64,000 bases of DNA from the IMG/VR virus record IMGVR_UViG_3300021376_000006. One strand, 5' to 3'. The notes beneath the pieces were generated by a model. That model saw only the letters and a program-made list of their open reading frames with translations, was not told the origin of the DNA and did no database searches. The position numbers were made by a program, and so were the translations under genes. This DNA is from a virus (taxonomy: Duplodnaviria > Caudoviricetes). Within the stretch, counting starts at the first letter, position 1. The number at the start of each line of letters is the position of its first letter. Positions 9,433 to 26,648 of this stretch are shown piece after piece.

Positions 9433-10410
9433 ATGACATACGCACAAGGTAGTTTAATTGATGCTTCAGATTACAACGATATATTAGGTACTAATACCAG
9501 CACTAATACCAGCACATTTCATGCTGTATGGGCGTGGGGTAATGGAAGTAGAGGTTATGGTCAAACACCTTTAAGTAATGTTGCTGTAAGTAGCACTGTT
9601 ACCGCTACTGAGTGGGCTACCCTTATTAACAATATAAATAGTGCTAATTTACATATTAGAAACACTAGCTCAGGTCTGACAGCTAATACTGCAGGTCAAG
9701 TCATTGGACATTCTGGTGGTCTACCAACTACAATTACATTACAAAATCAAGATAGATTATTATTTGCCACCAACTCTGCTGTAATTGCCAATCATAACAG
9801 TCTAACTGCCTACGGGGCTTGGTCTGTTGCAACTACAAGCTCAACGGTAAGTAGAAGTTTTGGCGCTAATGTACAGTTTGGCACAGCAGGGTCTACCGGT
9901 GTAGACCGAGCAAGGTTTTTTTTCAATGCCGGCGGCAGATTGAAATTTAATGTCAGTGCGGTCAATAATGTAGGTGCAGCGTCAAGATCTGCTGCTGTAG
10001 TTGATTTGTTCACTAATCTAGGAGGAGTTGCACTTTTTGGTGCTAATACCAACAGTGGTAGAACTGGCACAGGCGGCACACTTGGTACTAATGACACTGC
10101 AAAAGGTTATTATCAAGCTACAATAGCAAATATAACCTTAGTCTCGGTTACCAGTACCACAACCAATTATACCACAGACACAGCCACTATTACCTACAGA
10201 ACCAATGGCACACAAGGTTCGTTCAATGACAACGGCGACATTTTACAGTTTTGGGTGAATATTACTTCTACATCTGGCGGTAATTCCGGAGGTAGTTTCG
10301 ACGATGCTATCAATGTAACTCCAACTGTTACCATAGATGTTTCATATCCAGAAGTTACCAACATTGCAAATACCTGGGGTGCAGTAACGGTAACAAGACA
10401 AGGCTCGTAA
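9433..10410 (+). CDS. Virion structural protein (tail/baseplate)
   Basis: 325 aa, T/S/G/N-rich, GYGQT and FFNAGG motifs, last gene of the tail operon. Confidence 0.5.
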   Translation: MTYAQGSLIDASDYNDILGTNTSTNTSTFHAVWAWGNGSRGYGQTPLSNVAVSSTVTATEWATLINNINSANLHIRNTSSGLTANTAGQVIGHSGGLPTTITLQNQDRLLFATNSAVIANHNSLTAYGAWSVATTSSTVSRSFGANVQFGTAGSTGVDRARFFFNAGGRLKFNVSAVNNVGAASRSAAVVDLFTNLGGVALFGANTNSGRTGTGGTLGTNDTAKGYYQATIANITLVSVTSTTTNYTTDTATITYRTNGTQGSFNDNGDILQFWVNITSTSGGNSGGSFDDAINVTPTVTIDVSYPEVTNIANTWGAVTVTRQGS

Positions 10411-10415
10411 AAGTC

Positions 10416-10460
10416 TTTACATTCAGCAACTGGTTAGTGTATAATAATCACTAACCAGTT
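10416..10460 (+). promoter_or_regulatory. sigma70-like promoter whose -10 box lies in the loop of a perfect 12-bp inverted repeat (possible terminator of the tail operon)
   Basis: TTTACA (10416-21), 18 nt, TATAAT (10440-45). Arms AACTGGTTAGTG (10428-39) and CACTAACCAGTT (10449-60). Confidence 0.65.
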
Positions 10461-10474
10461 TCTACATCAAAATT

Positions 10475-10789
10475 ATGAATACTATCGACGATATTGTGAC
10501 CGAAGTTCGTAGGGCCACAGATTTTCAAATCAACAAGCAGATTCTACGCGAAAAAATTCAAACAGATCTACATATGACTCATCGCGGCGGCATGTTCAAA
10601 ATAACACCAGAACTTTTGGCATTTGTGAAAACATGGCCTGTAGACGAACTTTATCTTGAAGACATTTACCAAAATCCCGTTCAAATTGATCGTCAAACAT
10701 TTCTTGTAACTGCACAACAGCACTATCAAACAGTAATGAACACTTGGCATCAAGAATATGAAGAACTCAAAAAAATCAGAAAAATCTAG
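10475..10789 (+). CDS. Hypothetical protein
   Basis: 104-aa ORF directly downstream of the promoter and overlapping the next gene. Confidence 0.6.
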   Translation: MNTIDDIVTEVRRATDFQINKQILREKIQTDLHMTHRGGMFKITPELLAFVKTWPVDELYLEDIYQNPVQIDRQTFLVTAQQHYQTVMNTWHQEYEELKKIRKI

Positions 10790-11546
10790 AGGCATCGTGG
10801 CATTTGCTTACAATGTTGATACAATTGATTATGTGTCAATTGCCAAAAATATTTTAGAGTTGGCTAGTCAACTACTTGGAATTCCGTATACTTTAATTAC
10901 AGATAAAGAATTTGAAAATACAAATTACACAATGCGTTGTGACGTAGACACTGGCGAATTTATTAAGTGGCGCAATGTAGGAAGACATCATGCATACGAG
11001 TTATCACCATATGACGAAACTTTAGTGATTGATGTGGATTATTTGATATTGGACAACAATTTAAATAAAATTTTTGATGTTAATTGGGATTATTTACTAG
11101 CAAGAACAAGCACTGCCTTGACAACCACTTGGTCCAGTCAAATGGGAGAAACCAGTTTACCGTATGTTTGGGCCACAGTGTTTGCTTTCCGGAAAACACC
11201 TCGAGCTCAGATGTTTTTTGATCTTGTGGGAAGAATTCAAAGAAACTATGCCTACTATTGTGCTTTGTTTAATGTGCAAGAACGAAATTTTAGAAATGAC
11301 TATGCATTTGCCATGGCAGACATAATTTTAAATGGATACGCTCTATATAAAAAATCTATTCCGGGCAGCATATTGGCAGTGGATCAACCAATTGAAAGTA
11401 TTTGTTTGTCAAACAAAAAAGTCATTGTCAAAGATAAAAATAGAGCCTATGTGTTACCACGTACAAATTTACACATAATGAGCAAAACTTATTTGCAAAG
11501 CGATGACTGCCAACAGTTTATCAATCAGGTGCTTGATGAGTCATAA
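10758..11546 (+). CDS. GT-A fold glycosyltransferase-like protein
   Basis: GIVAFAYN..DY N-terminus and LSPYDETLVIDVDYLI (DxD). Paralog of the next gene. Start uncertain. Confidence 0.6.
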   Translation: MKNSKKSEKSRGIVAFAYNVDTIDYVSIAKNILELASQLLGIPYTLITDKEFENTNYTMRCDVDTGEFIKWRNVGRHHAYELSPYDETLVIDVDYLILDNNLNKIFDVNWDYLLARTSTALTTTWSSQMGETSLPYVWATVFAFRKTPRAQMFFDLVGRIQRNYAYYCALFNVQERNFRNDYAFAMADIILNGYALYKKSIPGSILAVDQPIESICLSNKKVIVKDKNRAYVLPRTNLHIMSKTYLQSDDCQQFINQVLDES

Positions 11547-12330
11547 AGCACAATTGGGATTCTTAACTGTTGCTTGCAACACCGAACATGTTGATTATCT
11601 TAGATTGGCTTATTTACAGGCTGTAAATGTCAAACAAACACAAAAGAACAATCAATATGCTGTGATAGTCGACAGTGCTACTCTAACTAAAGTTAGTGAA
11701 GATCACAAAAAAGTTTTTGATTACGTGATTGAAGCACCAGACCATGCATTTGGACCTTTTGGCACAGAAGCATTTGCATTTGAATTGACACCATTTAAAG
11801 AAACCATAAAACTAGAAAGCGATTTGTTATTTACAAGAAGTATAGACCATTGGGTACATGCATTTAGATTACGAGATATGGTACTAAGTGTTGGCAGTAG
11901 AAATTATCAACAACAAATATCCAATGTTAGAAATTATCGAAAAGCATTTGATGATAACAATTTGCCTGATGTATATAATGGGTTGATGTATTTTAGATTT
12001 ACCAAGACAGCACGAGATTTTTTTGACACAACAAAACAAATATATAGTAACTGGAACACAATTGTTAACGAGTTAAAAAATTGTAGAGAATCTGTACCCA
12101 GCACAGACGTTGTTTTTGCTTTGGCTGCACAAATTGTCGGACGAGAACTTTGCACATTACCAAGCGCAGACTTTATAAATTTTGTGCATATGAAGCCTGC
12201 TATTAACGGATTCAACGAAGATTTAAAATTCAGTGAAGTGTTTGTAACTGAACAGGACACAGATATGATTAGAATCAACAATATCAATCAATATCATCCT
12301 ATACATTATTATGATAAAGAATTTTTATGA
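11536..12330 (+). CDS. GT-A fold glycosyltransferase-like protein (paralog, DxD changed to ESD)
   Basis: GFLTVACN...DY and LTPFKETIKLESDLLF align with the preceding gene. ATG at 11536 overlaps the upstream stop. Confidence 0.55.
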   Translation: MSHKAQLGFLTVACNTEHVDYLRLAYLQAVNVKQTQKNNQYAVIVDSATLTKVSEDHKKVFDYVIEAPDHAFGPFGTEAFAFELTPFKETIKLESDLLFTRSIDHWVHAFRLRDMVLSVGSRNYQQQISNVRNYRKAFDDNNLPDVYNGLMYFRFTKTARDFFDTTKQIYSNWNTIVNELKNCRESVPSTDVVFALAAQIVGRELCTLPSADFINFVHMKPAINGFNEDLKFSEVFVTEQDTDMIRINNINQYHPIHYYDKEFL

Positions 12331-12698
12331 GTGAAAATCTATGGGACGAAGTTGCTAGATTAGTGGCCGAGTATGATGCTGCTCGCCCAGTGATTACAAA
12401 AGAATATAGACTGTATTACAATCATGACGGAACCGTAATTGGACTTTGGGAGAGCAATCATCCCACCGGCGACAATTTTATTGTGTTAGATGATCCGGGC
12501 ATGTTTTATAGTGCAAATACTCTTTTACTACGAGTGCAAAATAAAAAATTAATTGTATTAGATCCGCGAGCACCTGCAAAAACACGATTACAAAAATCCA
12601 ATCAAGGATTTAGAGTAGTAAAAGGACATGCCGCTTTGATTTTAGAACAGGATGAAATCTATCCAGAAGTAGAATATTATGACCAAAAAAATAATTGA
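12327..12698 (+). CDS. Hypothetical protein
   Basis: 123-aa ORF with ATGA coupling. Confidence 0.55.
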   Translation: MSENLWDEVARLVAEYDAARPVITKEYRLYYNHDGTVIGLWESNHPTGDNFIVLDDPGMFYSANTLLLRVQNKKLIVLDPRAPAKTRLQKSNQGFRVVKGHAALILEQDEIYPEVEYYDQKNN

Positions 12699-13608
12699 TA
12701 TTGCAGATTTAGATTGTATCTTTTTAACTTATGACGAACCTAAAAAAGAAGAATTTTGGATTAGGATTCAAAACATGGTACCGTGGGCAAAGAGAGTTGA
12801 TGGAGTTAAAGGGTCTGATGCAGCGCATAAAGCAGCCGCTGCCGCGTCAGACACAGACCGTTTTGTTGTTATTGACGGAGACAATATTCCGGATCCAGAA
12901 TTTTTTAATCTACAACTATCGTTGGACGAGAGAAATCATGACCACGTTTTTAGGTGGAAGGCCAGGAATGCTGTAAACGGTTTAAGATATGGTAACGGTG
13001 GTGTAAGCTGCTGGACCAAGGATTTCGTTAATCGTATGCGAACACACGAAGCAAGTCTTGGGGATGAGGAAACTGCCGTTGAGTTTTGTTTTGATCCTAA
13101 GTATACAGCAATGCATAATTGTTATAGCACTACATATCCTAATGGTAGTTCCAAACAAGCATGGCGTGCAGGATTCCGTGAAGGTGTCAAGATGTGTCTT
13201 AACAGGGGACACAAGCCCACTCTACAAGAATTTGAAGAAGGTGTGAACAAAAGGAACTATGATAATTTATGTATATGGCACTCAGTGGGTGCAGATGTGG
13301 AAAATGGTTATTGGGCAATGTATGGAGCACGATTAGGCACATACATGATCATGCTTGAAGGGTGGGATCATCATTATGTTCAGGACTTTGACATGCTTGA
13401 AAAACTATGGACCAGTTTTAGTACTGAAGATCCTGAAGAAGGTTGTGCTAGGATCCAAGATGCATTAAAAAATAGATTAGGATTACCTATTGTTATGTAT
13501 ACACCAGAACAAAGTCAATTTTTTAAACATCACTACAGTATTGGGCAGCGTAATAGTGAAATTATGATGACTGAGATAGATGTAATTCGGAGGATCGAAG
13601 GATGGTAA
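12679..13608 (+). CDS. GT-A (GT2-like) glycosyltransferase-like protein
   Basis: DCIFLTYDEP, RVDGVKGSDAAHKAAA and FVVIDGDN (DxD). Homologous to the C-terminal domain of 29987..31846. Confidence 0.55.
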   Translation: MTKKIIDIADLDCIFLTYDEPKKEEFWIRIQNMVPWAKRVDGVKGSDAAHKAAAAASDTDRFVVIDGDNIPDPEFFNLQLSLDERNHDHVFRWKARNAVNGLRYGNGGVSCWTKDFVNRMRTHEASLGDEETAVEFCFDPKYTAMHNCYSTTYPNGSSKQAWRAGFREGVKMCLNRGHKPTLQEFEEGVNKRNYDNLCIWHSVGADVENGYWAMYGARLGTYMIMLEGWDHHYVQDFDMLEKLWTSFSTEDPEEGCARIQDALKNRLGLPIVMYTPEQSQFFKHHYSIGQRNSEIMMTEIDVIRRIEGW

Positions 13609-14561
13609 TTTTAGAAAATAAAGACACACATATTTTTAATTTGCCTGAAAAAATTGTAGATATTGTACACGAGTATACAAATACCGGCAAAGTAATTATT
13701 ACAACTAACTCAGAAGGTTTGTGTCTTTTGTCGGCTAATTTTTATAATACATTAGATTATGTTTGCTCTAAATTTCAAATTAGTAAAAAATCAATTATTA
13801 TAAAAACTTGTAATGTAGAAGAATTTCATCCAGAATACACAATAAAAATTTTAGATAATTATTATATAGATAGTTGTAAGCCTTATTTAAAAGTTAAATT
13901 ATTACAAAAAAATCATCAGTTACATACTGTAGGTTGTTTTATAGGAAAGCCAAATTGGCATAGATTAATAATATCGGCATGGCTTTACACAAATTTTAAT
14001 AATAAAATTCTGTTAACGTGTCACTATAATCCGCAAGATGAAAGACATTTAATTGACAGCGAGTTAACAATGTTAAATCAACTAGCTTTTAACGAATTAT
14101 CTACAGTAATACCATATATGAAAAAATGTCCTGTGTATTTAGATGAAGGATTTTTAGATTATACTATTGGACCACCAACTCATTATAATTTATTGCAAAA
14201 GTACACTGACATATTTTTAGATTTAGTAGTCGAAACATATGTAACTGGTAAAACATTTTTTCCTACCGAAAAAACTCTAAGACCTATTATAGCAAAAACT
14301 CCTTTTATAATAATGGGTCCTCAAGGATATTTGTCTAATCTTAGAAGAATTGGATATAAAACTTTTTCAAATTGGTGGAGCGAAGATTATGACAATTTTA
14401 ATGGGTATCAACGAATTTTAGAAATTAAAAAAATTTTAGAAAATGTATTTACATGGCCACATAGTAAATTAAATGATACTTTAAATGAAATGAATAATGT
14501 ATTAGATCATAATAGAACGGTATTACAATATATGAAAGGTAGTGAAGTAAAACTGTCATGA
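13602..14561 (+). CDS. GT10-like (GT-B) glycosyltransferase-like protein, copy 1
   Basis: DLVVETY..KTFFPTEKTLRPI..KTPFI..G....L..L...GYKTF..WW.EDYD resembles the fucosyltransferase EN...Y.TEK motif. Visibly AT-rich. Confidence 0.5.
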   Translation: MVILENKDTHIFNLPEKIVDIVHEYTNTGKVIITTNSEGLCLLSANFYNTLDYVCSKFQISKKSIIIKTCNVEEFHPEYTIKILDNYYIDSCKPYLKVKLLQKNHQLHTVGCFIGKPNWHRLIISAWLYTNFNNKILLTCHYNPQDERHLIDSELTMLNQLAFNELSTVIPYMKKCPVYLDEGFLDYTIGPPTHYNLLQKYTDIFLDLVVETYVTGKTFFPTEKTLRPIIAKTPFIIMGPQGYLSNLRRIGYKTFSNWWSEDYDNFNGYQRILEIKKILENVFTWPHSKLNDTLNEMNNVLDHNRTVLQYMKGSEVKLS

Positions 14562-15940
14562 CAAAAAGTATCTTTCTCTCTTCTGCGGAGGCTATGCAAG
14601 AAAAATTAGGTCCTGCGCTTTGTCTTGCTAAATGGCAACAGGTCAGTCTACATCTTCCAACAGGACTAACTAACAGTTGCTATCACCCTCCACTACACGA
14701 AATAGATGCCGCACTATTGAAAGATAATCCCAGTGCGCTACACAATACACCACACAAAAAAGAACAGCGTAAAATTATGTTACGCAATGAACGACCGCAG
14801 GAGTGTAGTTATTGCTGGACACAAGAAGACCTAGGCAATTTAAGTGACAGGCATTATCGTTCAGGCGAACCCTGGGCAGCGGAACATTTTGATCGTATCA
14901 TCAACAGTACCGGAGACGAAGATGAAATTCCAAGTTATGTGGAAGTCAATTTTAATAACGCTTGCAACCTTAAGTGTAGCTATTGCAGCCCTCAGTTTAG
15001 CAGCACTTGGGCTGACGAAATTGCTAGGTACGGAGCGTATCCCACTAGTAATCGTCATAATGACCCCACTTTTTTTATGGACCGCAGAAGGCCTACGCCC
15101 AATCGTGAGGATAATCCTTATGTTAACGCTTTTTGGGAGTGGTGGCCAAGTCTTTATCCACGGTTAAAACACTTTCGAATGACCGGCGGCGAACCTTTAA
15201 TGGATCGTAATACCTATCGTGTATTTGATTATGTATTGGCTTTTCCTAAATCCGATTTGCACATTGATGTGACCAGCAATTTCAGTGTGGAAGAAAAGTT
15301 ATGGGAACAATACTTCAATTATGTAAAACAGTTGTGTAATACCAATATAGAGCATTTTATGCAGTATGTGAGTTTGGACTCTGGTATCCCGGAGCAAGCA
15401 GAATATATAAGACACGGGATGGAATTCAAACGAGTTTTAGCCAGGGTCGAATTTTTCTTAAGACACATACCCGGTCGCAATAGTCTTACATTTATTATTA
15501 CTATGAATAATCTAAGTGTTTTAGGTTTGCGAAGACAATTAGAAACCATTCTTTCATTGAGAAGATACCATAGTACAACATATCAACGTGTTTGGTTTGA
15601 CACACCAATATTGAGACAGCCCACGTGGCAAAGCTTACAAATACTTCCTTCTGTATATGCACGTCGATTGCAAGATGTAGTAGATTGGATGCAGGAAAAC
15701 TCGGAGACTGTTGAACGTCCGTTTCAAGGATTCAAAGATTATGAAGTGCAAAGAATGCAACGGGTTCTAGATTGGATGCAAGAAGGTAGCAAATTAGACG
15801 CTGAATATGTTAAACTACAACGTGCTGATTTTTATAAATTCTTTAGTGAGCACGATAAACGAAGAGGAACCTGGTTTCTAAATACATTTCCAGAAATGCG
15901 AGAGTTCTGGAACGAATGCCAATATCATGCCCAAAATTAA
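14558..15940 (+). CDS. Radical SAM protein 1 with N-terminal Twitch-like Cys domain
   Basis: CNLKCSYC (CxxxCxxC) and TGGEP; N-terminal CLAKW..SCYH..CSYCW. Confidence 0.85.
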   Translation: MTKSIFLSSAEAMQEKLGPALCLAKWQQVSLHLPTGLTNSCYHPPLHEIDAALLKDNPSALHNTPHKKEQRKIMLRNERPQECSYCWTQEDLGNLSDRHYRSGEPWAAEHFDRIINSTGDEDEIPSYVEVNFNNACNLKCSYCSPQFSSTWADEIARYGAYPTSNRHNDPTFFMDRRRPTPNREDNPYVNAFWEWWPSLYPRLKHFRMTGGEPLMDRNTYRVFDYVLAFPKSDLHIDVTSNFSVEEKLWEQYFNYVKQLCNTNIEHFMQYVSLDSGIPEQAEYIRHGMEFKRVLARVEFFLRHIPGRNSLTFIITMNNLSVLGLRRQLETILSLRRYHSTTYQRVWFDTPILRQPTWQSLQILPSVYARRLQDVVDWMQENSETVERPFQGFKDYEVQRMQRVLDWMQEGSKLDAEYVKLQRADFYKFFSEHDKRRGTWFLNTFPEMREFWNECQYHAQN

Positions 15941-17282
15941 TAACGAAACAGATTTAGAATACAAGCGCAGAGTGATCGACATCAAGTCCAAATCATTCTG
16001 TGGAGCCAAATGGTATAATGCTACAATTTGGCTAGGATCAGGTATGACTACGTCATGTCATCACCCACTTCCTCACAAAGTTGATGTTGGAGATGTGCAA
16101 GTCAACCCCAGGACACTACACAATACATCTAAGAAAAAAGAAGAGCGTCGCCAAATGCAAGCGGGCGCAAGACCTACAGGTTGTGAATATTGTTGGAAGA
16201 TTGAAGACATTGATAGAAATAATATCAGTGATCGAGTTTACAAAACAGTAATTTACTCAGATGAGGACTTAAATTATGCGTACAACACAGACCCTAGCGA
16301 AGATATCAATCTTCGAACTCTTGAAATTAGTTTTGACCGCACTTGTCAGTTTGCTTGCTCTTATTGCAATCCTGCGTTCAGTAGCACTTGGGTTAAAGAC
16401 ATCAATACCCATGGACCCTACACTAATTTGGTGTCTGACGGCAGGAATCATTTTACTCATAGCCATGACAGTTCGCAGCTTTTTAAATATGGTGAAAATA
16501 ACCCATATGCAGAAGCCTTCTTTAGATGGTGGGAATCAGACCTCCACCAAACCTTAGACGAATTACGTATAACCGGAGGCGAGCCACTCATGTCCGGATA
16601 CACTTGGCAACTACTTGATTGGTTTCAACAAAACAAAGGTTGTAGCCAAACCAGACTTGCAATAAATTCTAACCTAGGAACACAAGTTGATCTCGATCGT
16701 TTATTTTCAAGTGTGGACACACCCATTGACCTATACACTAGTAATGAAAGCATCGGCCTACACTCAGAGTATATTAGAGACGGATTGGCCTGGGACGATT
16801 GGGCTAATACTGTAGAATTAATCTTAGACCATCAAATTGATCATAAACTACGTGCTTTGCACATCATGTGTACTATCAATGCACTGTGTTTAGACAGTTT
16901 AACAGACTTCTTGGAATGGGTAATTAATTTAAAACTATGCTATGGTCGAGAAGCGGTGAACTTTTCTTTAAATATCCTACGTTTTCCAAGTTTTCAATCT
17001 GCCCTAGTACTACCTAGCCAAATACGCACCAAGTATAAAGATCAACTTATAGACTTTATGGCTAGACACCAAGGTTCAGAGTTTGTACACGAATATGAAT
17101 GGAATCAGCTACAACGTTTGATTGATTATCTTGACGTGGTTAAAACTTCTCATACCGGAGCAGCAGAACAAGATGTATTACAAAAAGATTTCAAAAATTT
17201 TTATACACAATACGATATAAGAAGGAAAAAAGATTTTTGTAAAACTTTTCCTAATTTAGCTGATTGGTTCATTAACATATGA
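15927..17282 (+). CDS. Radical SAM protein 2 with N-terminal Twitch-like Cys domain
   Basis: CQFACSYC and TGGEP; N-terminal CGAKW..SCHH..CEYCW. Confidence 0.85.
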   Translation: MPKINNETDLEYKRRVIDIKSKSFCGAKWYNATIWLGSGMTTSCHHPLPHKVDVGDVQVNPRTLHNTSKKKEERRQMQAGARPTGCEYCWKIEDIDRNNISDRVYKTVIYSDEDLNYAYNTDPSEDINLRTLEISFDRTCQFACSYCNPAFSSTWVKDINTHGPYTNLVSDGRNHFTHSHDSSQLFKYGENNPYAEAFFRWWESDLHQTLDELRITGGEPLMSGYTWQLLDWFQQNKGCSQTRLAINSNLGTQVDLDRLFSSVDTPIDLYTSNESIGLHSEYIRDGLAWDDWANTVELILDHQIDHKLRALHIMCTINALCLDSLTDFLEWVINLKLCYGREAVNFSLNILRFPSFQSALVLPSQIRTKYKDQLIDFMARHQGSEFVHEYEWNQLQRLIDYLDVVKTSHTGAAEQDVLQKDFKNFYTQYDIRRKKDFCKTFPNLADWFINI

Positions 17283-18745
17283 GTGTAAAAGATTTTTACA
17301 ATAAAGGCTATGTGTATAATGCCCGTTCTCCTTATTTTATAGAAAAAGAAAAACTGTCAAACCAACATTGGCAACGTCTAACTGAAAGCAAAACATTCTG
17401 TATGATGCCCTGGGTTCATATGCATGCATTTCCAGATGGCCGTGCCTATCCGTGTTGTCTTGCAGATTACTGGCATCCAGTTGGAGATTTAAGAAAAAAT
17501 ACCATGGAAGAAGTTTGGAACCAAGACGCATACAAAACCATGCGTCAAAACATGTTAGAGGACAAATCGTGCAAAGAATGTACCAAGTGTTATGAACAAG
17601 AAGCAAATGGTTTCTTTAGTATGCGATACGATAGTAATCGTAATTATGGACATCATATAGCAGAAATAGATCAAACACTGCCAGATGGTACTCATCCAGA
17701 ATTCAAGATAAGGTATTGGGATGTCAGATTTAGCAATCTTTGTAATTTTAGTTGTCGCAGTTGCGGTCCAATTTTTAGTAGCAACTGGTATAATGATCAT
17801 GTTAAACTTTATAATCGTAAGCCCGATGTACTTGGCAGAGACATGGCACGAGTTGAATACACCGCCGGCGATGAAGACGCCATGCTCGAGCAAATGCTCC
17901 CCCATATTCCATATCTTGAACAAGTTTATTTCGCCGGCGGTGAACCTTTAATTATGAAGGAACATTATTTCTTATTAGAAAAGTTAATTGAACATGGCAA
18001 GACAGATATCAGGATTCAATACAATACAAATTTTAGTGAATTGAGATACAAAGATAAACATGTGTTTGACTATTGGAAGCACTTCAAAAACGTCAGCGTA
18101 GGTGCCAGCTTGGATGCCAGCGGAGAGCGTGCTGAACTCATGCGTAAAGGCACAGATTGGTCTCAAACACTAGAGAATCGACGACACATGATGCAAGAAG
18201 TTCCGCATGTTGATTTTTACGTCAGTGCCACTGTAAGTGCTATGAACGTATTACATGTATTAGATTTTCATCGTGAATGGACAGAACTAGGATTAATTCA
18301 AGCTAAAGATTTTAATATTAACTTGTGTCAGAGTCCTAACTGGTATCGTGCAAATATTTTTCCTAAAGAATTTAAAGATCAAGTAATTGTGCCTGCCTAT
18401 AAACGGCATCTTGACTGGCTACGACCAGTTGATTCACTTAAACGAGCTACAAATGGATACGAATCACTATTAAATTTTATTCAAACAAACAATTCAGATA
18501 TACAGGTTAACCTACAGGAATTTGAGTATGAAACTCAAAAAAGTTCGTCGTGGCCAGACTGGGAAGATTTTCAAAAAGGAAAAAGAACTGATGATGAAGA
18601 AATAAACAGAGAAATTGAAGAATTTGTAAAAGAAAAAAAACAAACTATTGAATTTGAAAGCTTTAAAGCACAAATCAAAAAACTAGACAGTGTTAGAAAT
18701 GAAAACTTTTGGAACACATTTCCTGAATTAAATGATCTTGCCTAA
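17279..18745 (+). CDS. Radical SAM protein 3 with N-terminal Twitch-like Cys domain
   Basis: CNFSCRSC and AGGEP; N-terminal CMMPW..PCC..CTKCY; roughly 50-aa C-terminal insertion. Confidence 0.85.
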   Translation: MSVKDFYNKGYVYNARSPYFIEKEKLSNQHWQRLTESKTFCMMPWVHMHAFPDGRAYPCCLADYWHPVGDLRKNTMEEVWNQDAYKTMRQNMLEDKSCKECTKCYEQEANGFFSMRYDSNRNYGHHIAEIDQTLPDGTHPEFKIRYWDVRFSNLCNFSCRSCGPIFSSNWYNDHVKLYNRKPDVLGRDMARVEYTAGDEDAMLEQMLPHIPYLEQVYFAGGEPLIMKEHYFLLEKLIEHGKTDIRIQYNTNFSELRYKDKHVFDYWKHFKNVSVGASLDASGERAELMRKGTDWSQTLENRRHMMQEVPHVDFYVSATVSAMNVLHVLDFHREWTELGLIQAKDFNINLCQSPNWYRANIFPKEFKDQVIVPAYKRHLDWLRPVDSLKRATNGYESLLNFIQTNNSDIQVNLQEFEYETQKSSSWPDWEDFQKGKRTDDEEINREIEEFVKEKKQTIEFESFKAQIKKLDSVRNENFWNTFPELNDLA

Positions 18746-19946
18746 AACAATATGTATGCTTCCATGGGTAAGCATTGAAACCAGTCCTATTGGTACTGCT
18801 AGACCTTGCTGCTTGGCCAGAAACGAAATCACAAACAGTGATGGTAACAAGTTTGATCTTAACAAAGACAATTTAGAAAACATTTATCACAGTGAATACA
18901 TGCAAAATCTTCGTAGACAATTTAGAGCCGGAGAAAAGCCTAGCACTTGTAAATTGTGTTGGGACGAAGAGGCAGCCGGTAGAACAAGTAAAAGAATACA
19001 CAGTAGGGTAAGATTAAAAGAATTATATGAGTTAGTTGATTGGGCAAATGACGATCCGGATCAACTTTGGTTTCTGGATTTAAAGTTGGGAAATATTTGT
19101 AATCTTAAATGTAGAATATGCGGATCTTGGTCTAGCAGTAAATGGGCAGCAGAAGAACTAGATTATATGCCAAAAGATTTTGATAAAAAGTCGCATATTG
19201 CCTATCAGTGGCTACGGCAAGGTGCGTGGCCAAGAAACAAAGATACAAATTTTTGGGATAATCTAAAAACACTATTGCCTAATATCAAGTATCTTGAATT
19301 CACTGGTGGCGAACCTTGGTTAATTGAAGAACACTTTGATTTATTAAAATACGCAGTTGCACAAGGATACAGTAAAAATATTGATATACATTATAATACA
19401 AATGCTACCCAGATGCCCGGAGAGTTTGATGCTGTCATTTGGCAAGAGTTTGGTCGTGTAGATATTGCATTTAGTATTGACAATGTGGGTGCCAGATTTG
19501 AATACGAACGGTACGGCGCTAAATGGGAATTGGCAAATGAAATTATTGATTATGTACATTACAGCCAAGTCACGATGCCAAACATTACTACACAACTTTG
19601 TTTTACCATAAATGTGCAAAATGTTTACTATCTTGATGAATTATTAGCGTGGGCAGATACCAAACCGTTTGGCAGCGTGTATTTTAACATGATGCATAGC
19701 CCAGATCATATGAGTGTACAGCATATGACGCCACAGGCTCAAGACTTGGTTTTAAATAAATTAAAAACTCATTTTTGGCAAAATAAAAATTATTTGAAAG
19801 AAGTTGACAATGTAATAAAATTTATCGAACAAGGCCCAGGTAGTGACGGCTCCGAATTTCGAGAAAAAATGCAAAGAACAGATACTTATAGAAAACAAAA
19901 TTTTAAAAATACACATTCAGAAATAGCATTGGCAATGGGGTATTAA
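18732..19946 (+). CDS. Radical SAM protein 4 with N-terminal Twitch-like Cys domain
   Basis: CNLKCRIC and TGGEP; N-terminal CMLPW..PCC..CKLCW. Confidence 0.85.
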   Translation: MILPKTICMLPWVSIETSPIGTARPCCLARNEITNSDGNKFDLNKDNLENIYHSEYMQNLRRQFRAGEKPSTCKLCWDEEAAGRTSKRIHSRVRLKELYELVDWANDDPDQLWFLDLKLGNICNLKCRICGSWSSSKWAAEELDYMPKDFDKKSHIAYQWLRQGAWPRNKDTNFWDNLKTLLPNIKYLEFTGGEPWLIEEHFDLLKYAVAQGYSKNIDIHYNTNATQMPGEFDAVIWQEFGRVDIAFSIDNVGARFEYERYGAKWELANEIIDYVHYSQVTMPNITTQLCFTINVQNVYYLDELLAWADTKPFGSVYFNMMHSPDHMSVQHMTPQAQDLVLNKLKTHFWQNKNYLKEVDNVIKFIEQGPGSDGSEFREKMQRTDTYRKQNFKNTHSEIALAMGY

Positions 19947-20672
19947 GTGAAAAATTTAATAACAACAGGATGTAGCTTTACAGCAGGCGTGATTCCGTTG
20001 CCTCACGAAAACAAAATAGCTTGGAAAAATCGAGGTAGCGTATGGCCACACTTTTGTTTTGCTGAAATGAATCCTGCACAAGATAAATTTGTTAATTTGG
20101 CTATACCTGGCGGTGGCAACATAGCTGCATTTACCAATTTAATCTATGTGTTAGAAAATAATAAAACATTTACACCTGACAATACGCTCATAGGTATAAA
20201 TTTAACTGGAATGCATCGATATGACGCAATTAGTGATTCTGCAAATGTTCAAGTGAACAAAAATTTGTGTTGTATTGATATCGATGGCATAACACACATT
20301 AGTGATACTTTAGGATTTGGTTGGATCACTGGCAAACATTTTGGTAATCAAAAAGTCGATATTTTATCAGCCGTCACTATTATTCAAGGTCTATCGTATC
20401 TAGAATTGCGTAAATTTAATTATTTTTTTATGTTAATGAATAATGCAATTTATGATTATTCTCCAGAATGGTTTCAACAGGCTTTAGATATAAGAAAATC
20501 CAACTGGATAACATTCAATAAACATATAGGCATGTTTGAATTTGTTCGCAATCTAAATCAAGTAACAGAAGATGGGCATCCAACTACAGATCGGCATAAA
20601 AGAATTAGTGAATTTGTGATCGAGTATATTAAAAATAATTGCAAAAATTATTTAGACAATTATGCAGCATAA
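19947..20672 (+). CDS. SGNH/GDSL-like protein, copy 1
   Basis: TGCSFTAG (block I), LAIPGGGN (block II), C-terminal DGHP. GTG start abuts the upstream stop. Confidence 0.55.
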   Translation: MKNLITTGCSFTAGVIPLPHENKIAWKNRGSVWPHFCFAEMNPAQDKFVNLAIPGGGNIAAFTNLIYVLENNKTFTPDNTLIGINLTGMHRYDAISDSANVQVNKNLCCIDIDGITHISDTLGFGWITGKHFGNQKVDILSAVTIIQGLSYLELRKFNYFFMLMNNAIYDYSPEWFQQALDIRKSNWITFNKHIGMFEFVRNLNQVTEDGHPTTDRHKRISEFVIEYIKNNCKNYLDNYAA

Positions 20673-21951
20673 TTTATGTATGGCACCTTGGACTCATACT
20701 TATTTGAGTCCACAAACTGAACGACGCATGTGTTGTGCCAGTAGAGAACCCGCACAAAATTTTAAACAGTATATTGATAGTGCCGTGGGCACAGGCAAGT
20801 ATATTCCTATAACACTTGAAGAGCATTGGAACAGTGATCATATGCGTAGTGTACGCCGACGCATGATGGCCGGAGAAGTATTACCCGAGTGTGAAGTATG
20901 TAACGATCGATTGTTAAACACAGATGTTTACCGCAGTTATTTTAACAATTTATTTGCCCATAAGTACAAACAAGTAGTAGAAACAACAGACGCTTCGGGA
21001 CACACAACAATGGAGCCTGTTTCATGGGATTACAGATTCAGTAATCTTTGCAATTTCAAATGTCGTATGTGCGGCGACATGTTAAGTAGTTCGTGGGAAA
21101 GCGAACAACGACAACACGAAATGATCGATTGGTCTGATCCCAAGAATTCGTGGATGCGACCTGAAATTAAAAAACAAATTGAACAGTTCCAGACAACTCA
21201 GATTGAAGCAGAGTTTGCAGCAGCAGTAGAGGACCACCGTGTAGAGGAAGTTTATTGGGTGGGAGGAGAACCGTTAATGTATGAACAGCATTGGCGGTAT
21301 ATGCAGCGCATTATAGAACTAGGAGATGGACCACGTGTTTACGCCAGATACAACACTAATCTTAGTCGCGTTGATTATAGAGGTTGTAATCTTTATAAAG
21401 ATGTACTTGCTCATTTGCGCGATTGGCAAATTTGTGCCAGTATCGACGGCACAGGCCAAATTGGAGAATATATCCGAACAGGTCTTGATTATGAAGCATG
21501 GCTTGCAAATTTTAAGACAGGAATTAGATTCTCTACGCACTGTAGGCAAATGAGATTGGACTTTACACTTACCCTACCGGGCATGTTTGAAGTCGTTAAT
21601 ATACAGCAGTTGGGTAATGATTTGGGCGTTGACATCCTTAGTAAGGTTGTCTTTAGTTTCTCGCCGGACATAGTTATGTCACCTTTAGCCCTACCTAGAT
21701 CCATTTTAGATCCCTGGGTAGATGAAATCATAAACGCCGGAGTAGCCGGACCATTAAAGGATACACTAGTTCAGTTACGAACACGCCCTACCTTTCAAGA
21801 GCAATATGGCGAACAAGCTTACCGCATTGGTCTTGTGCAAGGCCGAGCTCGTGTGTTAAAATTAGAAGCTATTCGTAGCCAATCTATTACTATGGATCAA
21901 ATACTTTCAAAGAGAGCAGATGTGTATGAGTGGTGGACTGCCATTGGTTAA
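20662..21951 (+). CDS. Radical SAM protein 5 with N-terminal Twitch-like Cys domain
   Basis: CNFKCRMC and VGGEP; N-terminal CMAPW..MCC..CEVC. Confidence 0.85.
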   Translation: MQHNLCMAPWTHTYLSPQTERRMCCASREPAQNFKQYIDSAVGTGKYIPITLEEHWNSDHMRSVRRRMMAGEVLPECEVCNDRLLNTDVYRSYFNNLFAHKYKQVVETTDASGHTTMEPVSWDYRFSNLCNFKCRMCGDMLSSSWESEQRQHEMIDWSDPKNSWMRPEIKKQIEQFQTTQIEAEFAAAVEDHRVEEVYWVGGEPLMYEQHWRYMQRIIELGDGPRVYARYNTNLSRVDYRGCNLYKDVLAHLRDWQICASIDGTGQIGEYIRTGLDYEAWLANFKTGIRFSTHCRQMRLDFTLTLPGMFEVVNIQQLGNDLGVDILSKVVFSFSPDIVMSPLALPRSILDPWVDEIINAGVAGPLKDTLVQLRTRPTFQEQYGEQAYRIGLVQGRARVLKLEAIRSQSITMDQILSKRADVYEWWTAIG

Positions 21952-23020
21952 AATAGTATTGCGTAATCCGTTAAATTATGCAGATCAAATTGATTATAAT
22001 ATTGTACCTTACGATAATCAATTGGCCGAAGATTGGATTGTTGCTCTTAAAGAATTACTACAAAATAAAAATCTATTAGAAAAAAACTTTTGTTTTTTAG
22101 GATTTCCTAATACAGCAAGAACAGTAGAATATTTGTGCCAACAACTCGATGAAGCGGTAGCAACAATTAATGATTTTTTTAGTGATTATTATATTGATGA
22201 TTTTTACACACCATCCAATGTAATTGCCGATGACTATGCGCCTGATGGTCCTAATCACGAAAAATTAAATAAACTACATAATCATTTTGAAGTGTTACAA
22301 GGCACAGTATGGGAACTCAGTGATTATTATAAACGAGCCAATTATGAAACAAAATATGCTATTAGACAATTAAACAATATTTGTCACGAACTGGAAACTT
22401 TAATTTTAAGTCGAAGAAAATTGGTTACTGTGCCTCAATGGGTGCGTCCTAGTCAAATCACAACATTTATAAATGCCGCTAGATATGATCTAAAAGACGA
22501 ACATAGGAAATTATTTGCAAATAATGGCTACGATCGTGTATTAGGCGGCGTTTACATGCATTGGACACAAATTGGCAAAACGTACTATGAAGTTTTTCGA
22601 GATGAAGGTGCTCCTAATTTGACCGATACTGTGTGTGAAGCAATCACAGATTTGAAATATTACAGTGGCGAGTTTGATATAGAATGGGGTAATGATATGA
22701 TTTATGGCAGTGCAAATGTACCTTGGTATAATCAAGATCAAGATTTATTTAGAGCCTGGATGAGAAATAACGGCAAAGATGCTCTTGATCCAAAATTAAG
22801 TTGTGGATATCTTCCTATAGCACAAGTGGATTTACAAGGGAGTTTTGGAACGTTAGATTATCGAAAAATTTGGGAAATGCTAGGAGGACACCTTGACATC
22901 TATAAAATTGAAGTAGACGGAACAGCTAGTACCTTTGATTATTCATGGGCTGATGCCAATTATAAACAGATGCAAATAGATATGATGAGACCGGGATATG
23001 ATTATAGTAGCAGGCGGTGA
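21920..23020 (+). CDS. Hypothetical protein
   Basis: 366-aa ORF overlapping both neighbours; true start may be the TTG near 21944. No motif recognised. Confidence 0.6.
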   Translation: MCMSGGLPLVKIVLRNPLNYADQIDYNIVPYDNQLAEDWIVALKELLQNKNLLEKNFCFLGFPNTARTVEYLCQQLDEAVATINDFFSDYYIDDFYTPSNVIADDYAPDGPNHEKLNKLHNHFEVLQGTVWELSDYYKRANYETKYAIRQLNNICHELETLILSRRKLVTVPQWVRPSQITTFINAARYDLKDEHRKLFANNGYDRVLGGVYMHWTQIGKTYYEVFRDEGAPNLTDTVCEAITDLKYYSGEFDIEWGNDMIYGSANVPWYNQDQDLFRAWMRNNGKDALDPKLSCGYLPIAQVDLQGSFGTLDYRKIWEMLGGHLDIYKIEVDGTASTFDYSWADANYKQMQIDMMRPGYDYSSRR

Positions 23021-23837
23021 CAGTTTTGTGTACGGCAGCGAATTAGCCGACTGTCAGGATAATACCCCGGCTGGAATTTTTGGACACAGTGTTAGTACAT
23101 TTTCGGCATTGATATCAAAAAATGCAGATTACAAATGTGTAGCTTGGCCTGGATATGCCAATGACAGTATCGCAAGAACTGTTATTGCAGAGTCTAGCAA
23201 ACACCCTAAATGTGGAGTTATTGTAAGTTGGACATTCCCGGGGAGGTACGAATTTAGATTCAGTTATGATACAGGACAGAAAAAAAGTCCGTGGTACGCT
23301 TTTAACAGTTGGACTATTCAAAATCCTGATGTTGTTACTAGAGAATTTAGTAAAAAAAATCAATATATCGAAGAAGTATTCAAGCAGCACCATATCAAAG
23401 CCAAACAAACTGGCACATTATTTTTTGCTAAAACATTTTACGAACATGTAGGTAGTAGCGAGTATTGGGAAATCTACAGCACACTTAAAGAAATTGTTTA
23501 CTTGCAAAATTATTTAAAAGTGAACAGTATTCCGTATCTGTTTACCTGTGCAGATAATAGCATATTGTATAACTATACCATAGAGCAGGCAGATGGATAT
23601 ATTACAAGTTTGCAAAAGCAAATTGATTTTAATAATTGGTTTTGGTTTCCAGCCGGAACCAATCAGAATGAAACCAAAACACCAAGAGGATTTTATCAAT
23701 GGGCGGTTGAAAATAAATATCCTGTAGGTACCACACACCCATTAGAACAAGCACATAAAGTGGCAGCAGAATTAATAAAGGACAAATTCAATGAACTGGT
23801 TACGCAACCTTTGGAACAGAGTTCAATTAGAAATTAG
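22998..23837 (+). CDS. SGNH/GDSL-like protein, copy 2
   Basis: GGDSFVYG, WPGYAN, SWTFPGRYE, THPLEQAH. Confidence 0.6.
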   Translation: MIIVAGGDSFVYGSELADCQDNTPAGIFGHSVSTFSALISKNADYKCVAWPGYANDSIARTVIAESSKHPKCGVIVSWTFPGRYEFRFSYDTGQKKSPWYAFNSWTIQNPDVVTREFSKKNQYIEEVFKQHHIKAKQTGTLFFAKTFYEHVGSSEYWEIYSTLKEIVYLQNYLKVNSIPYLFTCADNSILYNYTIEQADGYITSLQKQIDFNNWFWFPAGTNQNETKTPRGFYQWAVENKYPVGTTHPLEQAHKVAAELIKDKFNELVTQPLEQSSIRN

Positions 23838-23892
23838 ATATAGACGTAAACTACGAGAACTTCGTAAACGCGATCCATTTATTTACAAATGA
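23791..23892 (+). CDS. Small basic peptide, 33 aa (MNWLRNLWNRVQLEIRYRRKLRELRKRDPFIYK)
   Basis: Below the ORF-track cutoff. ATG at 23791; its TGA (23890-92) overlaps the next ATG (23889) as ATGA. Confidence 0.6.
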   Translation: MNWLRNLWNRVQLEIRYRRKLRELRKRDPFIYK

Positions 23893-24557
23893 TTAAAAAT
23901 ATCCTATCAGTTGGCGATAGTTTTACTTATGGCGAAGAGCTTAAAAATATTTACAATGCATGGCCATATCAAGTCGGTAAAATTTTAAATGCAGACGTGG
24001 TTAATTTAGCCAAACCAGCTGCTAGTAATGACAAAATTTTAAGATTAACCTTAGATTATCTCTTACGAAATAATAATGTTGATTTGGTTTTAATTGGATG
24101 GTCTAATCCTGGTAGAATGGAATTCAGTGATGAACTGGGTTATTATGATGTATGGCCCGGGTATACTGTAGATTCACATCTCTCCAATAATTTCCATTGG
24201 CGGAAAAACATGATAGAATATGTTTCTCAATATCATAATCCACAAGCTTTACATTTAAAATTTATTCAACAAATAATTTTGTTGCAAAGCTATTTAGAAA
24301 GTAAAAAAATCAAGTATGTGATGATGAACATAATGCAAAATGATTATTATAAAAAATTATATTTTGATGGAATCAAGCAATATCATGATCAAATAAACAC
24401 AGACAATTTTTTAGATTTTAATATCAGTGGAATGATAGAATGGACAAAAAATTGTAAACAGGGTTCAAGGGGGCATTTCCTTGAAGACGGCCATACATTG
24501 GTAGCTGGAAAAGTGTTAAACTATGTAAATCAGCAGTGCTGGGCATTGACACCATGA
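23889..24557 (+). CDS. SGNH/GDSL-like protein, copy 3
   Basis: VGDSFTYG, LAKPAASN, GWSNPGRME, GHFLEDGH. Confidence 0.6.
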   Translation: MIKNILSVGDSFTYGEELKNIYNAWPYQVGKILNADVVNLAKPAASNDKILRLTLDYLLRNNNVDLVLIGWSNPGRMEFSDELGYYDVWPGYTVDSHLSNNFHWRKNMIEYVSQYHNPQALHLKFIQQIILLQSYLESKKIKYVMMNIMQNDYYKKLYFDGIKQYHDQINTDNFLDFNISGMIEWTKNCKQGSRGHFLEDGHTLVAGKVLNYVNQQCWALTP

Positions 24558-25201
24558 TCCATGCAATAGGAGATAGTTTCACATACGGTGACGAACTTGA
24601 GTGTAAAAACTTAGCGTGGCCTACGATCTTGTCTAATAAATTACATAAACATGTGGCCAATTTAGGAAGACCTGCAAGTGGAAATACACGTATAGTTAAA
24701 AGATTGATTCACTGTGTTTTAGACAAAAGTGATTTAGTTATTATTGGATGGTCAGATTGTAATAGACAGGAATTTGCCGACGAAATTGGAGTGTATGATA
24801 TATGGGCCGGTAGAAATTACAGAGCCATACAATTAGATGATCCCACCCATCGAATTAATTTAATCAAGTATATAACTGCATACGATGTGCCTGAGTACTA
24901 TTATGCCAATTGGTTAAGACAAATTTTATTGGCTCAAAGTTTTTGTGAAGTTCATAATGTTCCTTGTGTTATGTTTATTGCTTGTGGTTCTCATCAAAGT
25001 CATCAAATTTATCATTCCAAGCACAAAACCTTGATTGATGCAATAGATCATTCAATGTTTGTTGATGGTATGTTTACAAGTGTAGGAGAATGGACCTACG
25101 GTTTGCCACATGGACCCGGTGGCCATCCACTTGAACAAGGCCATGAAATTATAGCAGAAAAAATTTATGAACATATTAGGAATAAGTGCTGGCTTTCATG
25201 A
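24554..25201 (+). CDS. SGNH/GDSL-like protein, copy 4
   Basis: IGDSFTYG, LGRPASGN, GWSDCNRQE, GHPLEQGH. ATG at 24554 in an ATGA overlap. Confidence 0.6.
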   Translation: MIHAIGDSFTYGDELECKNLAWPTILSNKLHKHVANLGRPASGNTRIVKRLIHCVLDKSDLVIIGWSDCNRQEFADEIGVYDIWAGRNYRAIQLDDPTHRINLIKYITAYDVPEYYYANWLRQILLAQSFCEVHNVPCVMFIACGSHQSHQIYHSKHKTLIDAIDHSMFVDGMFTSVGEWTYGLPHGPGGHPLEQGHEIIAEKIYEHIRNKCWLS

Positions 25202-26648
25202 CGCTGCTGCCGCAGTAATCAATCGCCAAGGCGATATACTGTATGCAGCGCATAGCGAACGTTACAGCCGGGTCAAAAACGATGCCAATCTTTGTCGTGC
25301 CATGATGGATGATATCATGGATCAGTTTCCTATTGCTCATGTTGCATATTATGAAACTCCGTGGAAGAAACAATTACGAAGATTGTACAGTGAAGAAGGT
25401 ATAGAGTGGAATCGTTTATCTACTCGAAGGATCTTGACAGAACAGTTTGGCAGATGGGCACATATTCCCAGTTACAGTAGTCATAATCATCACATGAGTC
25501 ATGCAGCAGCCGGCTTCCAAACAAGTCCATACAATCGCGCAACAGTAGTAGTCATTGACGCAATTGGTGAGTGGGACACTGTTAGCATATGGGGCGCGGA
25601 GTACGACAGTCGTGGAATAGCCCAATATAAACGACTATGGGGTCAACGATATCCTCATAGTATAGGATTGTTTTATAGCGCAATGACTCAAAGAGTAGGA
25701 TTAAAACCTAACGAAGATGAATACATTTTAATGGGTATGAGCGCATATGGAAGAAACGGTTATGCCAGCACACTACAAGATGAGTTGATTGTAAACGAAT
25801 GGGAAACTACATTTAAACAAAATTTACATGTTGGTATTACAAATGATTTTTTAACAGATGTGCATGACGCAGATTTAGCAGCAGCAGCACAAAAAGTTTT
25901 AGAAAGATTGGTATACAATGTGATGCGTCGAGCAAGAGATTTTGCGTGGAGTGCAAATCTTGTTTATATGGGTGGTGTAGCATTAAACTGTTTGGCAAAT
26001 AGAAACCTTGGAGAATACTTTGAAAATATTTGGATTATGCCTAATCCTGGTGATGCTGGTAGCAGTCTTGGCGCTGCCGCTCTCGCTTATGGGCGTCGTG
26101 TTAATTGGGTCGATGCTTATCTGGGCCACGATATTCCGGGACCATATCCCGTTACACCCATACTTGATAGTTTATTATCTGACGGTATTTGCGGTGTTGC
26201 TAGTGGTCGTGCAGAGTTTGGTCCCCGTGCTTTAGGTAATAGAAGTTTATTAGCGGACCCAAGAGGACCTAACATCAAGGATCGAGTAAATGAAATTAAA
26301 CGCAGACAAAAATTCAGACCTTTTGCCCCTGTCATATTGGAGGAGATGGCTGATCAGTACTTTGATTTCCGCAACGGGTGGCCTAATAGCCGTTATATGC
26401 AGTCAGTCGCTCATTGTTGGTATCCTAGCCGTTTTCCTGCTATCTGCCATGTTGATGGGACCAGTCGAGTACAAACGGTACCAGCAGACGGTTCGGGCAT
26501 CAGACAATTATTGGAAAAATGGTTTGTAATGACTGACTGCCCTATGCTACTAAACACAAGTTTAAATATCAAAGGTGAGCCAATGGTAAATGATCGAGAC
26601 GACGCAGATAGATTTGAAAGTAAATACGGTGTAAAGGTATTTTCATGA
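25167..26648 (+). CDS. Carbamoyltransferase, NodU/CmcH/TobZ family
   Basis: ILGISAGFHDAAA, SERYSRVKND, HHMSHAAA, DAIGE, GRAEFGPRALGNRSLLADP, RPFAP, LLNTSLN. Confidence 0.92.
   Translation: MNILGISAGFHDAAAAVINRQGDILYAAHSERYSRVKNDANLCRAMMDDIMDQFPIAHVAYYETPWKKQLRRLYSEEGIEWNRLSTRRILTEQFGRWAHIPSYSSHNHHMSHAAAGFQTSPYNRATVVVIDAIGEWDTVSIWGAEYDSRGIAQYKRLWGQRYPHSIGLFYSAMTQRVGLKPNEDEYILMGMSAYGRNGYASTLQDELIVNEWETTFKQNLHVGITNDFLTDVHDADLAAAAQKVLERLVYNVMRRARDFAWSANLVYMGGVALNCLANRNLGEYFENIWIMPNPGDAGSSLGAAALAYGRRVNWVDAYLGHDIPGPYPVTPILDSLLSDGICGVASGRAEFGPRALGNRSLLADPRGPNIKDRVNEIKRRQKFRPFAPVILEEMADQYFDFRNGWPNSRYMQSVAHCWYPSRFPAICHVDGTSRVQTVPADGSGIRQLLEKWFVMTDCPMLLNTSLNIKGEPMVNDRDDADRFESKYGVKVFS

Follow-up and report, generated by a model that had tools for sequence, protein, structure and literature searches.

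Why would a phage keep five radical S-adenosylmethionine (SAM) enzymes almost in tandem, and on what might they act? The question is raised by positions 14558–21951 of a 64,000-nucleotide stretch of Caudoviricetes DNA (IMG/VR record IMGVR_UViG_3300021376_000006), which we refer to as the window. A sequence-only reading of this region had singled out five near-tandem enzymes with CxxxCxxC and GGEP motifs, and all of the features it listed are present in five complete plus-strand open reading frames (ORFs), here named R1–R5. Our analysis identified R1–R5 as members of an already catalogued family in which a Twitch-type domain precedes the radical SAM core, and nothing structural sets them apart from that family. 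What is specific to this phage is that five ancient subtypes are kept together in a jumbo-phage operon. We assign a probability of roughly 0.5 to the view that the five proteins are non-redundant and serve as tailoring enzymes in a phage pathway for sugars or glycans that is linked to the tail fibers.

The five genes, with the residue numbers of their motifs and their scores against the NCBIfam profile NF033640, are:

R1, 14558–15940, plus strand: 460 aa, S-C-Y-H subtype; Twitch Cys region at nt 14621–14815, CxxxCxxC at nt 14963–14986; C22 (CLAKW), S40-C41-Y-H, C83xxC86, C136xxxC140xxC143, GGEP 210; 307.4 bits
R2, 15927–17282, plus strand: 451 aa, S-C-H-H subtype; Twitch at nt 15999–16193, CxxxCxxC at nt 16344–16367; C25 (CGAKW), S43-C44-H-H, C86xxC89, C140/144/147, GGEP 217; 285.5 bits
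R3, 17279–18745, plus strand: 488 aa, C-C subtype; Twitch at nt 17399–17590, CxxxCxxC at nt 17741–17764; C41 (CMMPW), C59-C60, C101xxC104, C155/159/162, GGEP 220; 386.6 bits
R4, 18732–19946, plus strand: 404 aa, C-C subtype; Twitch at nt 18753–18959, CxxxCxxC at nt 19098–19121; C8 (CMLPW), C26-C27, C73xxC76, C123/127/130, GGEP 192; 336.4 bits
R5, 20662–21951, plus strand: 429 aa, C-C subtype; Twitch at nt 20677–20901, CxxxCxxC at nt 21049–21072; C6 (CMAPW), C24-C25, C77xxC80, C130/134/137, GGEP 201; 280.1 bits

The motifs run in the same order in every copy, from C-x2-(K/P)-W through (S/C)-C and CxxC to CxxxCxxC and GGEP, and the CxxxCxxC and GGE SAM-binding motifs are invariant in R1–R5 and in 67 family members. 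Successive genes from R1 to R4 overlap by 14, 4 and 14 nt, while an SGNH-like ORF at 19947–20672 starts immediately after R4 and shares 11 nt with R5. With genes that overlap by 4–14 nt or abut, the R1–R5 block is therefore translationally coupled.

A Twitch-like module ahead of the radical SAM core

Each enzyme had been proposed to carry a permuted Twitch/SPASM-like domain at its N-terminus. The domain proved to be a genuine homolog located ahead of the core, but the arrangement is not new, as NCBIfam already includes a curated family defined by that order. Pfam SPASM matches cover residues 41–104 of R3 (3e-13), 8–77 of R4 and 6–81 of R5, all of them ahead of the Radical_SAM match (residues 150–314 in R3). 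The curated family, NF033640 ('N_Twi_rSAM, twitch domain-containing radical SAM protein'), matches R1–R5 with 280–387 bits against a curated cut-off of 170 bits, and nearly the whole of its 398-position model is covered. Partial matches to the NCBIfam models StsB and AlbA also fall on the N-terminal module.

Comparison with the founding Twitch enzyme, the butirosin 2-deoxy-scyllo-inosamine dehydrogenase BtrN (PDB 4M7S/4M7T), supports this assignment. A family profile built from 67 diverse members matched the C-terminal Twitch domain of BtrN (E 6e-7), and one restricted to the N-terminal 100 residues matched BtrN residues 162–240 (E 9e-5) with the four cysteines coinciding Cys for Cys. C169, C187, C232 and C235 of BtrN are reportedly its auxiliary-cluster ligands (Goldman et al. 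2013). The sequence-only reading had staked its domain proposal on conservation of the N-terminal cysteines, and all four are kept in R1–R5 and, across an alignment of 67 family sequences whose columns average 27% identity, are invariant or >90% conserved. Their spacing in R1–R5 is 18 to 19 residues, followed by 42–53 residues to the CxxC. These four are the only conserved cysteines of the module; the CX2CX5CX3C of the full SPASM pattern is absent, and the C-terminus of R1–R5 is not Cys-rich. R1–R5 resemble BtrN, whose substrate is carbohydrate-like, in the four aligned cysteines, a first spacing of 18 and the terminal CxxC. In contrast, the Twitch domain follows the core in BtrN and precedes it in R1–R5, which additionally possess a ~100-residue helical C-terminal region with a conserved D-x2-R (D384 and R387 in R4), and identity between the cores is low.

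An AlphaFold2 model of R4 (predicted local distance difference test score (pLDDT) of 94.3 and predicted template modeling (TM) score (pTM) of 0.91) places a β-hairpin and helices in residues 10–81 (strands 14–17, helices 55–65 and 71–81). In the AlphaFold DB, clusters of uncharacterized cellular proteins match this model over its full length with TM scores of 0.8–0.88, and one of them is named 'Twitch domain-containing radical SAM protein'. Foldseek matches among PDB entries and Swiss-Prot models align mainly the core, at approximately residues 110–370. The core fold itself matches known radical SAM structures with Z scores of 10–13, the best neighbors being BlsE (13.1), anSME (12.6) and DesII (12.5). 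BlsE and DesII (PDB 7VOB and 8HZV; ~215–225 residues aligned), the best and third-best of these, are single-step sugar C–H activating enzymes encoded beside sugar-pathway genes. However, the match is to the generic core only and ties with that of anSME, and neither enzyme has an N-terminal Twitch module or occurs in multi-paralog arrays. HygY, NeoN and AprD4 are further carbohydrate-tailoring radical SAM enzymes, and they are not known to form multi-paralog arrays either.

The peptide and protein maturases anSME, CteB, SkfB, SuiB and CrpC resemble R1–R5 in having the radical SAM core and a homologous auxiliary-cluster domain. Their auxiliary domain is C-terminal and mostly contains 7–8 cysteines for two auxiliary clusters, in contrast to the four cysteines of R1–R5, and many of these enzymes have an RRE (RiPP recognition element, where RiPP denotes a peptide made on the ribosome and modified after translation) and an adjacent precursor. 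The family to which R1–R5 belong is large, with 5,185 clusters at 50% identity and E below 1e-30 in a library of 1.8 billion proteins. By contrast, none of 14 well-known control genomes of model organisms encodes a protein above the NF033640 cut-off. Membership in a characterized subgroup with a housekeeping role, which the sequence-only reading had named as fatal to its proposal, is therefore not what we found: the family is catalogued but uncharacterized.

Two subtypes and five old lineages

The division of the five copies into S-C-(Y/H)-H (R1 and R2) and C-C (R3–R5) subtypes, recognized from the sequence alone, is both real and old as judged by orthologs and by phylogeny. S-C-Y-H is present in 71 of 72 R1 orthologs and S-C-H-H in 77 of 84 R2 orthologs, while C-C is found in every ortholog of R3 (82/82), R4 (85/85) and R5 (80/80), a split far beyond chance. 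The same S-C versus C-C split is the deepest in the family tree, with a Shimodaira–Hasegawa-like approximate likelihood ratio test (SH-aLRT) support of 100 on both sides. Among single-domain representatives from the 1.8-billion-protein library, 53 of 103 have C-H-H or C-Y-H at the doublet positions.

The histidines of R1 and R2 had been suggested to ligate the auxiliary cluster. Counting from the first Cys, position +19 is Cys in all five copies, and position +18 is Cys in R3–R5 and Ser in R1 and R2; the second Cys of the doublet is thus invariant and only the first is replaced. Which Cys of the C-C doublet aligns as the ligand is ambiguous by one residue. Because four cysteines are always available, His ligation is not required, and we rejected His as an auxiliary-cluster ligand. 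One idea for the extra Cys of the doublet, by analogy with radical SAM epimerases, is that it may serve as a hydrogen-atom donor. R1/R2-type proteins also have a His-rich stretch, likewise conserved, following this position.

Conservation of the array was followed in 83 related viral loci, a sample in which R4 identity goes as low as 38%. Five to eight consecutive family members are encoded in nearly all of these loci, and orthologs of R1, R2, R3, R4 and R5 are present in 75, 80, 83, 83 and 81 of them, respectively. Three related viral records with CheckV completeness of 100%, 97% and 80% have 10, 8 and 7 copies over the cut-off when a second array is included. Every paralog occupies a phage clade of its own in a maximum-likelihood tree, and each of these clades has bacterial sisters; R2 groups with 11 bacterial sequences (support 96), and the bacterial sister clade of R5 has a support of 100. 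These separate clades with bacterial sisters indicate that the five types are old and not redundant. The tandem arrangement, taken alone, could suggest that the copies are recent duplicates and redundant, or that they are decaying and have no distinct roles, an account that we find scarcely credible: the other copies are just 20–32% identical to R1, every catalytic and ligand motif is intact in every copy, and each copy has its own orthologs in 75–83 of the 83 loci down to ~40% identity. Both the tree and the ortholog counts led us to reject recent redundant duplication.

Many of the library clusters are proteins in which two or three modules are naturally fused. R1-like modules are joined to R2-like ones, R3-like to R4-like and R4-like to R5-like, and the module order is that of the phage genes. 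Two of the fusions were checked and are uninterrupted ORFs under translation table 11; a bacterial contig carries one of the two, next to clpXP. Such fusions, like the separate conservation of each paralog, lend indirect support to joint action of neighboring copies, and the stepwise action or hetero-oligomers suggested in the sequence-only reading are plausible. A complex prediction for R1 and R2 returned a score of 0.00, which we counted neither for nor against pairing.

The jumbo-phage operon and its bacterial counterparts

The window is phage DNA with tightly packed genes and a tRNA count of zero across its 64 kb, and derives from a giant, uncultured, T4-like jumbo phage of lake origin. 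Its family B DNA polymerase is 45–49% identical to those of jumbo phages Atu_ph07 and Phosso, and phage-type AAA ATPase and DUF2201 proteins are also encoded. Identical or near-identical copies of R3 occur on metagenome contigs of 338–367 kb. Searches of cultured phages gave no megablast match to the 7.4-kb region and only four distant records by tblastn with R3. Family members occur in the cultured Ralstonia phage RsoM2USA and Vibrio phages K566 and K567. Separately, at 41001–43777 on the minus strand, the AAA ATPase (PHROG 1297) adjoins the DUF2201 metallopeptidase/VWA-like protein (PHROG 1314) as a conserved phage gene pair.

R1–R5 lie within a plus-strand operon extending from approximately 10475 to 28808, directly 3′ of tail-fiber-like genes, and the same succession of tail-fiber genes and operon is seen in two related loci (L001 and L003). 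The features other than R1–R5 are:

7792–10410, plus strand: tail-fiber-like genes, encoding a protein of 541 aa that contains a Peptidase_G2/IMC autoproteolytic domain (PF11962, 5e-7) and a 325-aa Ser/Thr/Asn/Gly-rich protein assigned by composition
10758–11546 and 11503–12330, plus strand: two conserved proteins of 262 and 275 aa with a D-x-D-like motif recognized by eye; orthologs in 55 and 59 of the 83 loci
12679–13608, plus strand: probable GT2-like glycosyltransferase, 309 aa; 'Glycosyltransferase 2-like' cluster in an Atlas feature search, score 0.99
13602–14561, plus strand: phage-specific protein, 319 aa; overlaps the start of R1 by 4 nt
19947–20672, plus strand: SGNH/GDSL-like protein, 241 aa, with a GCSF motif, between R4 and R5; linked to DUF6071/GDSL paralogs by iterated hidden Markov model (HMM) search
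21920–23020, plus strand: conserved protein, 366 aa; overlaps the stop of R5 by 32 nt; orthologs in 60 of the 83 loci
22998–23837, 23889–24557 and 24536–25201, plus strand: three SGNH/GDSL-like paralogs; Pfam DUF6071 at 5e-14 and 1e-7, with all three linked by iterated HMM search
25167–26648, plus strand: NodU/CmcH-type carbamoyltransferase; Pfam Carbam_trans_N (2e-38) and Carbam_trans_C (4e-46); in 70 of the 83 loci
26645–27349, plus strand: fifth SGNH-like paralog, by iterated HMM search
27369–27800, plus strand: APS-kinase-like P-loop kinase
27736–28338, plus strand: nucleotidyltransferase-like protein
28335–28808, plus strand: dCMP/cytidine deaminase, at the operon end

The D66-G-D68 of the 309-aa protein is invariant in 19 orthologs, and the protein is present in 65 of the 83 loci with a median identity of 68%. 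The fold of the 319-aa protein occurs in other phages (Atlas) fused to NDP-sugar epimerase/dehydratase or methyltransferase domains (TM 0.75 and 0.67), and a paralog is encoded at 28714–29988 on the minus strand. The carbamoyltransferase matches the NodU model at 5e-37, which is below the equivalog cut-off. Nearby on the minus strand are genes for a DegT aminotransferase, an NDP-sugar epimerase/dehydratase, a methyltransferase and thymidylate synthase. Neither the 262- nor the 275-aa protein matched Pfam or NCBIfam, and profile searches of PDB sequences returned no match for the 309- or the 366-aa protein. The 366-aa protein also had no match in Pfam or, by Foldseek, in the PDB; its model (pLDDT 87) has a marginal VIA Z of ~8 to a cyclophilin-like barrel with a helical insert and may represent a new or very distant fold. 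A scan for promoters and terminators was uninformative, with 96 promoter-like sites versus 80 expected and 7 terminator-like sites versus 11 expected.

Several observations concern genes around the array. The 619-aa protein at 29987–31846 on the plus strand is in part ~25% identical to the GT2-like protein and may be an additional glycosyltransferase encoded immediately outside the operon. The window encodes eight SGNH/GDSL (DUF6071-like) paralogs, five in the operon and three at 36726–37442, 37946–38776 and 48116–48802 on the minus strand, and in several of them G-C-S replaces G-D-S at the nucleophile motif. The member located between R4 and R5 is a variable insert in the array, with an ortholog in only 2 of the 83 loci. 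GDSL-TPR genes flank family members in two bacterial loci, and the SGNH/GDSL proteins look like a second expanded family traveling with the radical SAM enzymes.

Searching bacterial genomes with an R1-like alignment, which biases the sample towards the R1/R2 subtype, yielded 52 loci, of which ~40 are from predatory Bdellovibrionota and some contain arrays of 7–9 copies. Conserved neighbors in the Bdellovibrionota loci are the ABC-2 polysaccharide exporter components Wzt (13 loci) and Wzm (11), GT4 (9), carbamoyltransferase (7) and DegT (5). Elsewhere, a radical SAM–GT2 fusion is encoded on a contig with nine radical SAM and five GT2 genes. GT2, GT4, RmlD, GDSL-TPR and NDP-sugar epimerase fused to C-methyltransferase domains accompany family members in two further loci, one from Elusimicrobiota and the other on a 1.7-Mb contig. 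Within each subtype the phage and Bdellovibrionota sequences are sister groups, a pattern that suggests exchange between them. One four-gene array (R2-, R4-, R5- and R2-like; L137:3902–4999 and 5895–11308) lies beside a phage-type integrase among otherwise housekeeping genes and looks like a mobile island carrying radical SAM enzymes only. The same cassette of glycosyltransferase-like and radical SAM genes appears in metagenome-assembled genomes attributed to Neomarinimicrobiota, Fischerella, Pelagibacterales and Haliscomenobacter (L090, L093, L125 and L130), with tail-fiber genes as well in L093 and L130. These are probably phage contigs binned with bacterial genomes, or at best weak hints of a host.

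Candidate substrates and chemistry

Each of R1–R5 would be expected to bind two [4Fe-4S] clusters. The cluster at CxxxCxxC would cleave SAM to a 5′-deoxyadenosyl radical, and a second cluster would be bound by the four cysteines of the N-terminal Twitch module, as in BtrN. In the preferred reading the five enzymes tailor a phage-encoded sugar or glycan and are co-transcribed with the glycosyltransferase-like proteins, the SGNH proteins, which resemble acyl-esterases/transferases, and the O-carbamoyltransferase. Each paralog may take a hydrogen atom from a position, or from a sugar residue, that is specific to it, leading to epimerization, oxidation or deoxygenation, and the neighbors R1–R2, R3–R4 and R4–R5 may work as pairs. 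The virion fibers could be the final target. GT2-like, SGNH-like, carbamoyltransferase, DegT and NDP-sugar epimerase genes all lie in or beside the operon. Together with the comparable gene neighborhoods in other lineages and the action of two of the three best core neighbors, BlsE and DesII, on sugar nucleosides or nucleotides, these sugar-type genes favor a sugar or glycan substrate.

A more ambitious version of this proposal holds that the N-terminal-Twitch radical SAM enzymes represent a new class of glycan editors, operating in fixed pairs or assemblies (R1–R2 and R3–R4–R5) and rewriting residues of tail-fiber glycans by oxygen-independent radical chemistry such as epimerization, deoxygenation or C–C or C–O bond formation. 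The two subtypes would then correspond to two kinds of reaction, which might differ in whether a Cys beside the auxiliary cluster donates a hydrogen atom, and the cassette would have been exchanged between phages and Bdellovibrionota. We consider this extended version distinctly unlikely.

Several observations weigh against a simple role in glycan tailoring. Our literature search found no paper on the NF033640 family, on N-terminal Twitch/SPASM radical SAM enzymes or on jumbo-phage SPASM enzymes, and it revealed no characterized member and no known substrate. The two proteins at 10758–12330 may be GT-A-like glycosyltransferases by their motif, a weak assignment, and a glycosyltransferase role for the 319-aa protein is likewise weak and no more than a lead; its nearest named Atlas clusters are GT10 fucosyltransferases at only 0.78–0.79. 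A glycan marker is present in only 13 of 29 long bacterial loci. The large Bdellovibrionota arrays that were inspected (L089, L092, L094 and L137) stand alone, surrounded by housekeeping genes or neighboring an integrase, and their fetched flanks contain no glycosyltransferase. Protein substrates would suit those family members that are fused to TPR, Sel1, subtilase or GNAT domains. Finally, CteB, SkfB, SuiB and anSME, all among the nearest solved SPASM/Twitch enzymes, act on peptides or proteins, with EpeE as another example.

The last two points also speak for the possibility that R1–R5 are protein or peptide maturases, introducing radical modifications such as crosslinks or epimerized residues into a phage structural protein, for example the tail fibers, or into the protein part of a glycoprotein, with the sugar genes serving a separate decoration step. 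The best PDB sequence match of the core is a RiPP cyclopropyl synthase (8VPO), the operon comes after late structural genes, and the stand-alone bacterial arrays lack sugar genes, all of which would fit such a role. Whole proteins can be substrates of radical SAM enzymes, as for CrpC (PMC13692751), although that enzyme is from another family, in which the SPASM domain is C-terminal and an RRE is present. By comparison, neither Pfam nor NCBIfam detected an RRE or other peptide-binding domain in R1–R5, and R4 and R5 begin at the Twitch module. No Cys-rich, repeat-bearing or leader-like precursor was recognized among the operon ORFs, and association with glycosyltransferases, Wzm/Wzt, DegT and carbamoyltransferase recurs in unrelated lineages. 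We judge maturation of a protein or peptide unlikely, if well worth keeping in view. Action on nucleotides, DNA or another small molecule, as in phage base hypermodification or a pathway to a nucleotide derivative, appears quite improbable. The P-loop kinase, nucleotidyltransferase-like protein and dCMP deaminase at the operon end and the nearby thymidylate synthase point in this direction, and the self-contained bacterial arrays would suit a substrate present in every cell. Thymidine hypermodification pathways of some phages reportedly use radical SAM enzymes (Lee et al. 2018). Viperin and MoaA, which have nucleotide substrates, are among the sequence and fold matches of the core, but these matches cover the generic core only (Z 11–12, tied with many others), and the NCBIfam viperin match reaches just 18–21 bits against a cut-off of 180. 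No DNA-modification cluster is known to include partners of the SGNH, glycosyltransferase-like, carbamoyltransferase and Wzm/Wzt types.

Overall, the usual order of Twitch/SPASM domains is reversed in a large family, and giant phages retain between five and ten or more copies of it, anciently diverged and always together. Such multi-copy retention implies a multi-step radical pathway that is not explained by any known phage or glycan pathway. The system can be tested in the cultured carriers RsoM2USA, K566 and K567 and in Bdellovibrio relatives, with the natural fusions indicating which copies are partners. Identification of a substrate would give function to thousands of proteins and, if the preferred role in glycan tailoring is correct, would bring to light virion or surface-sugar chemistry of a new kind.

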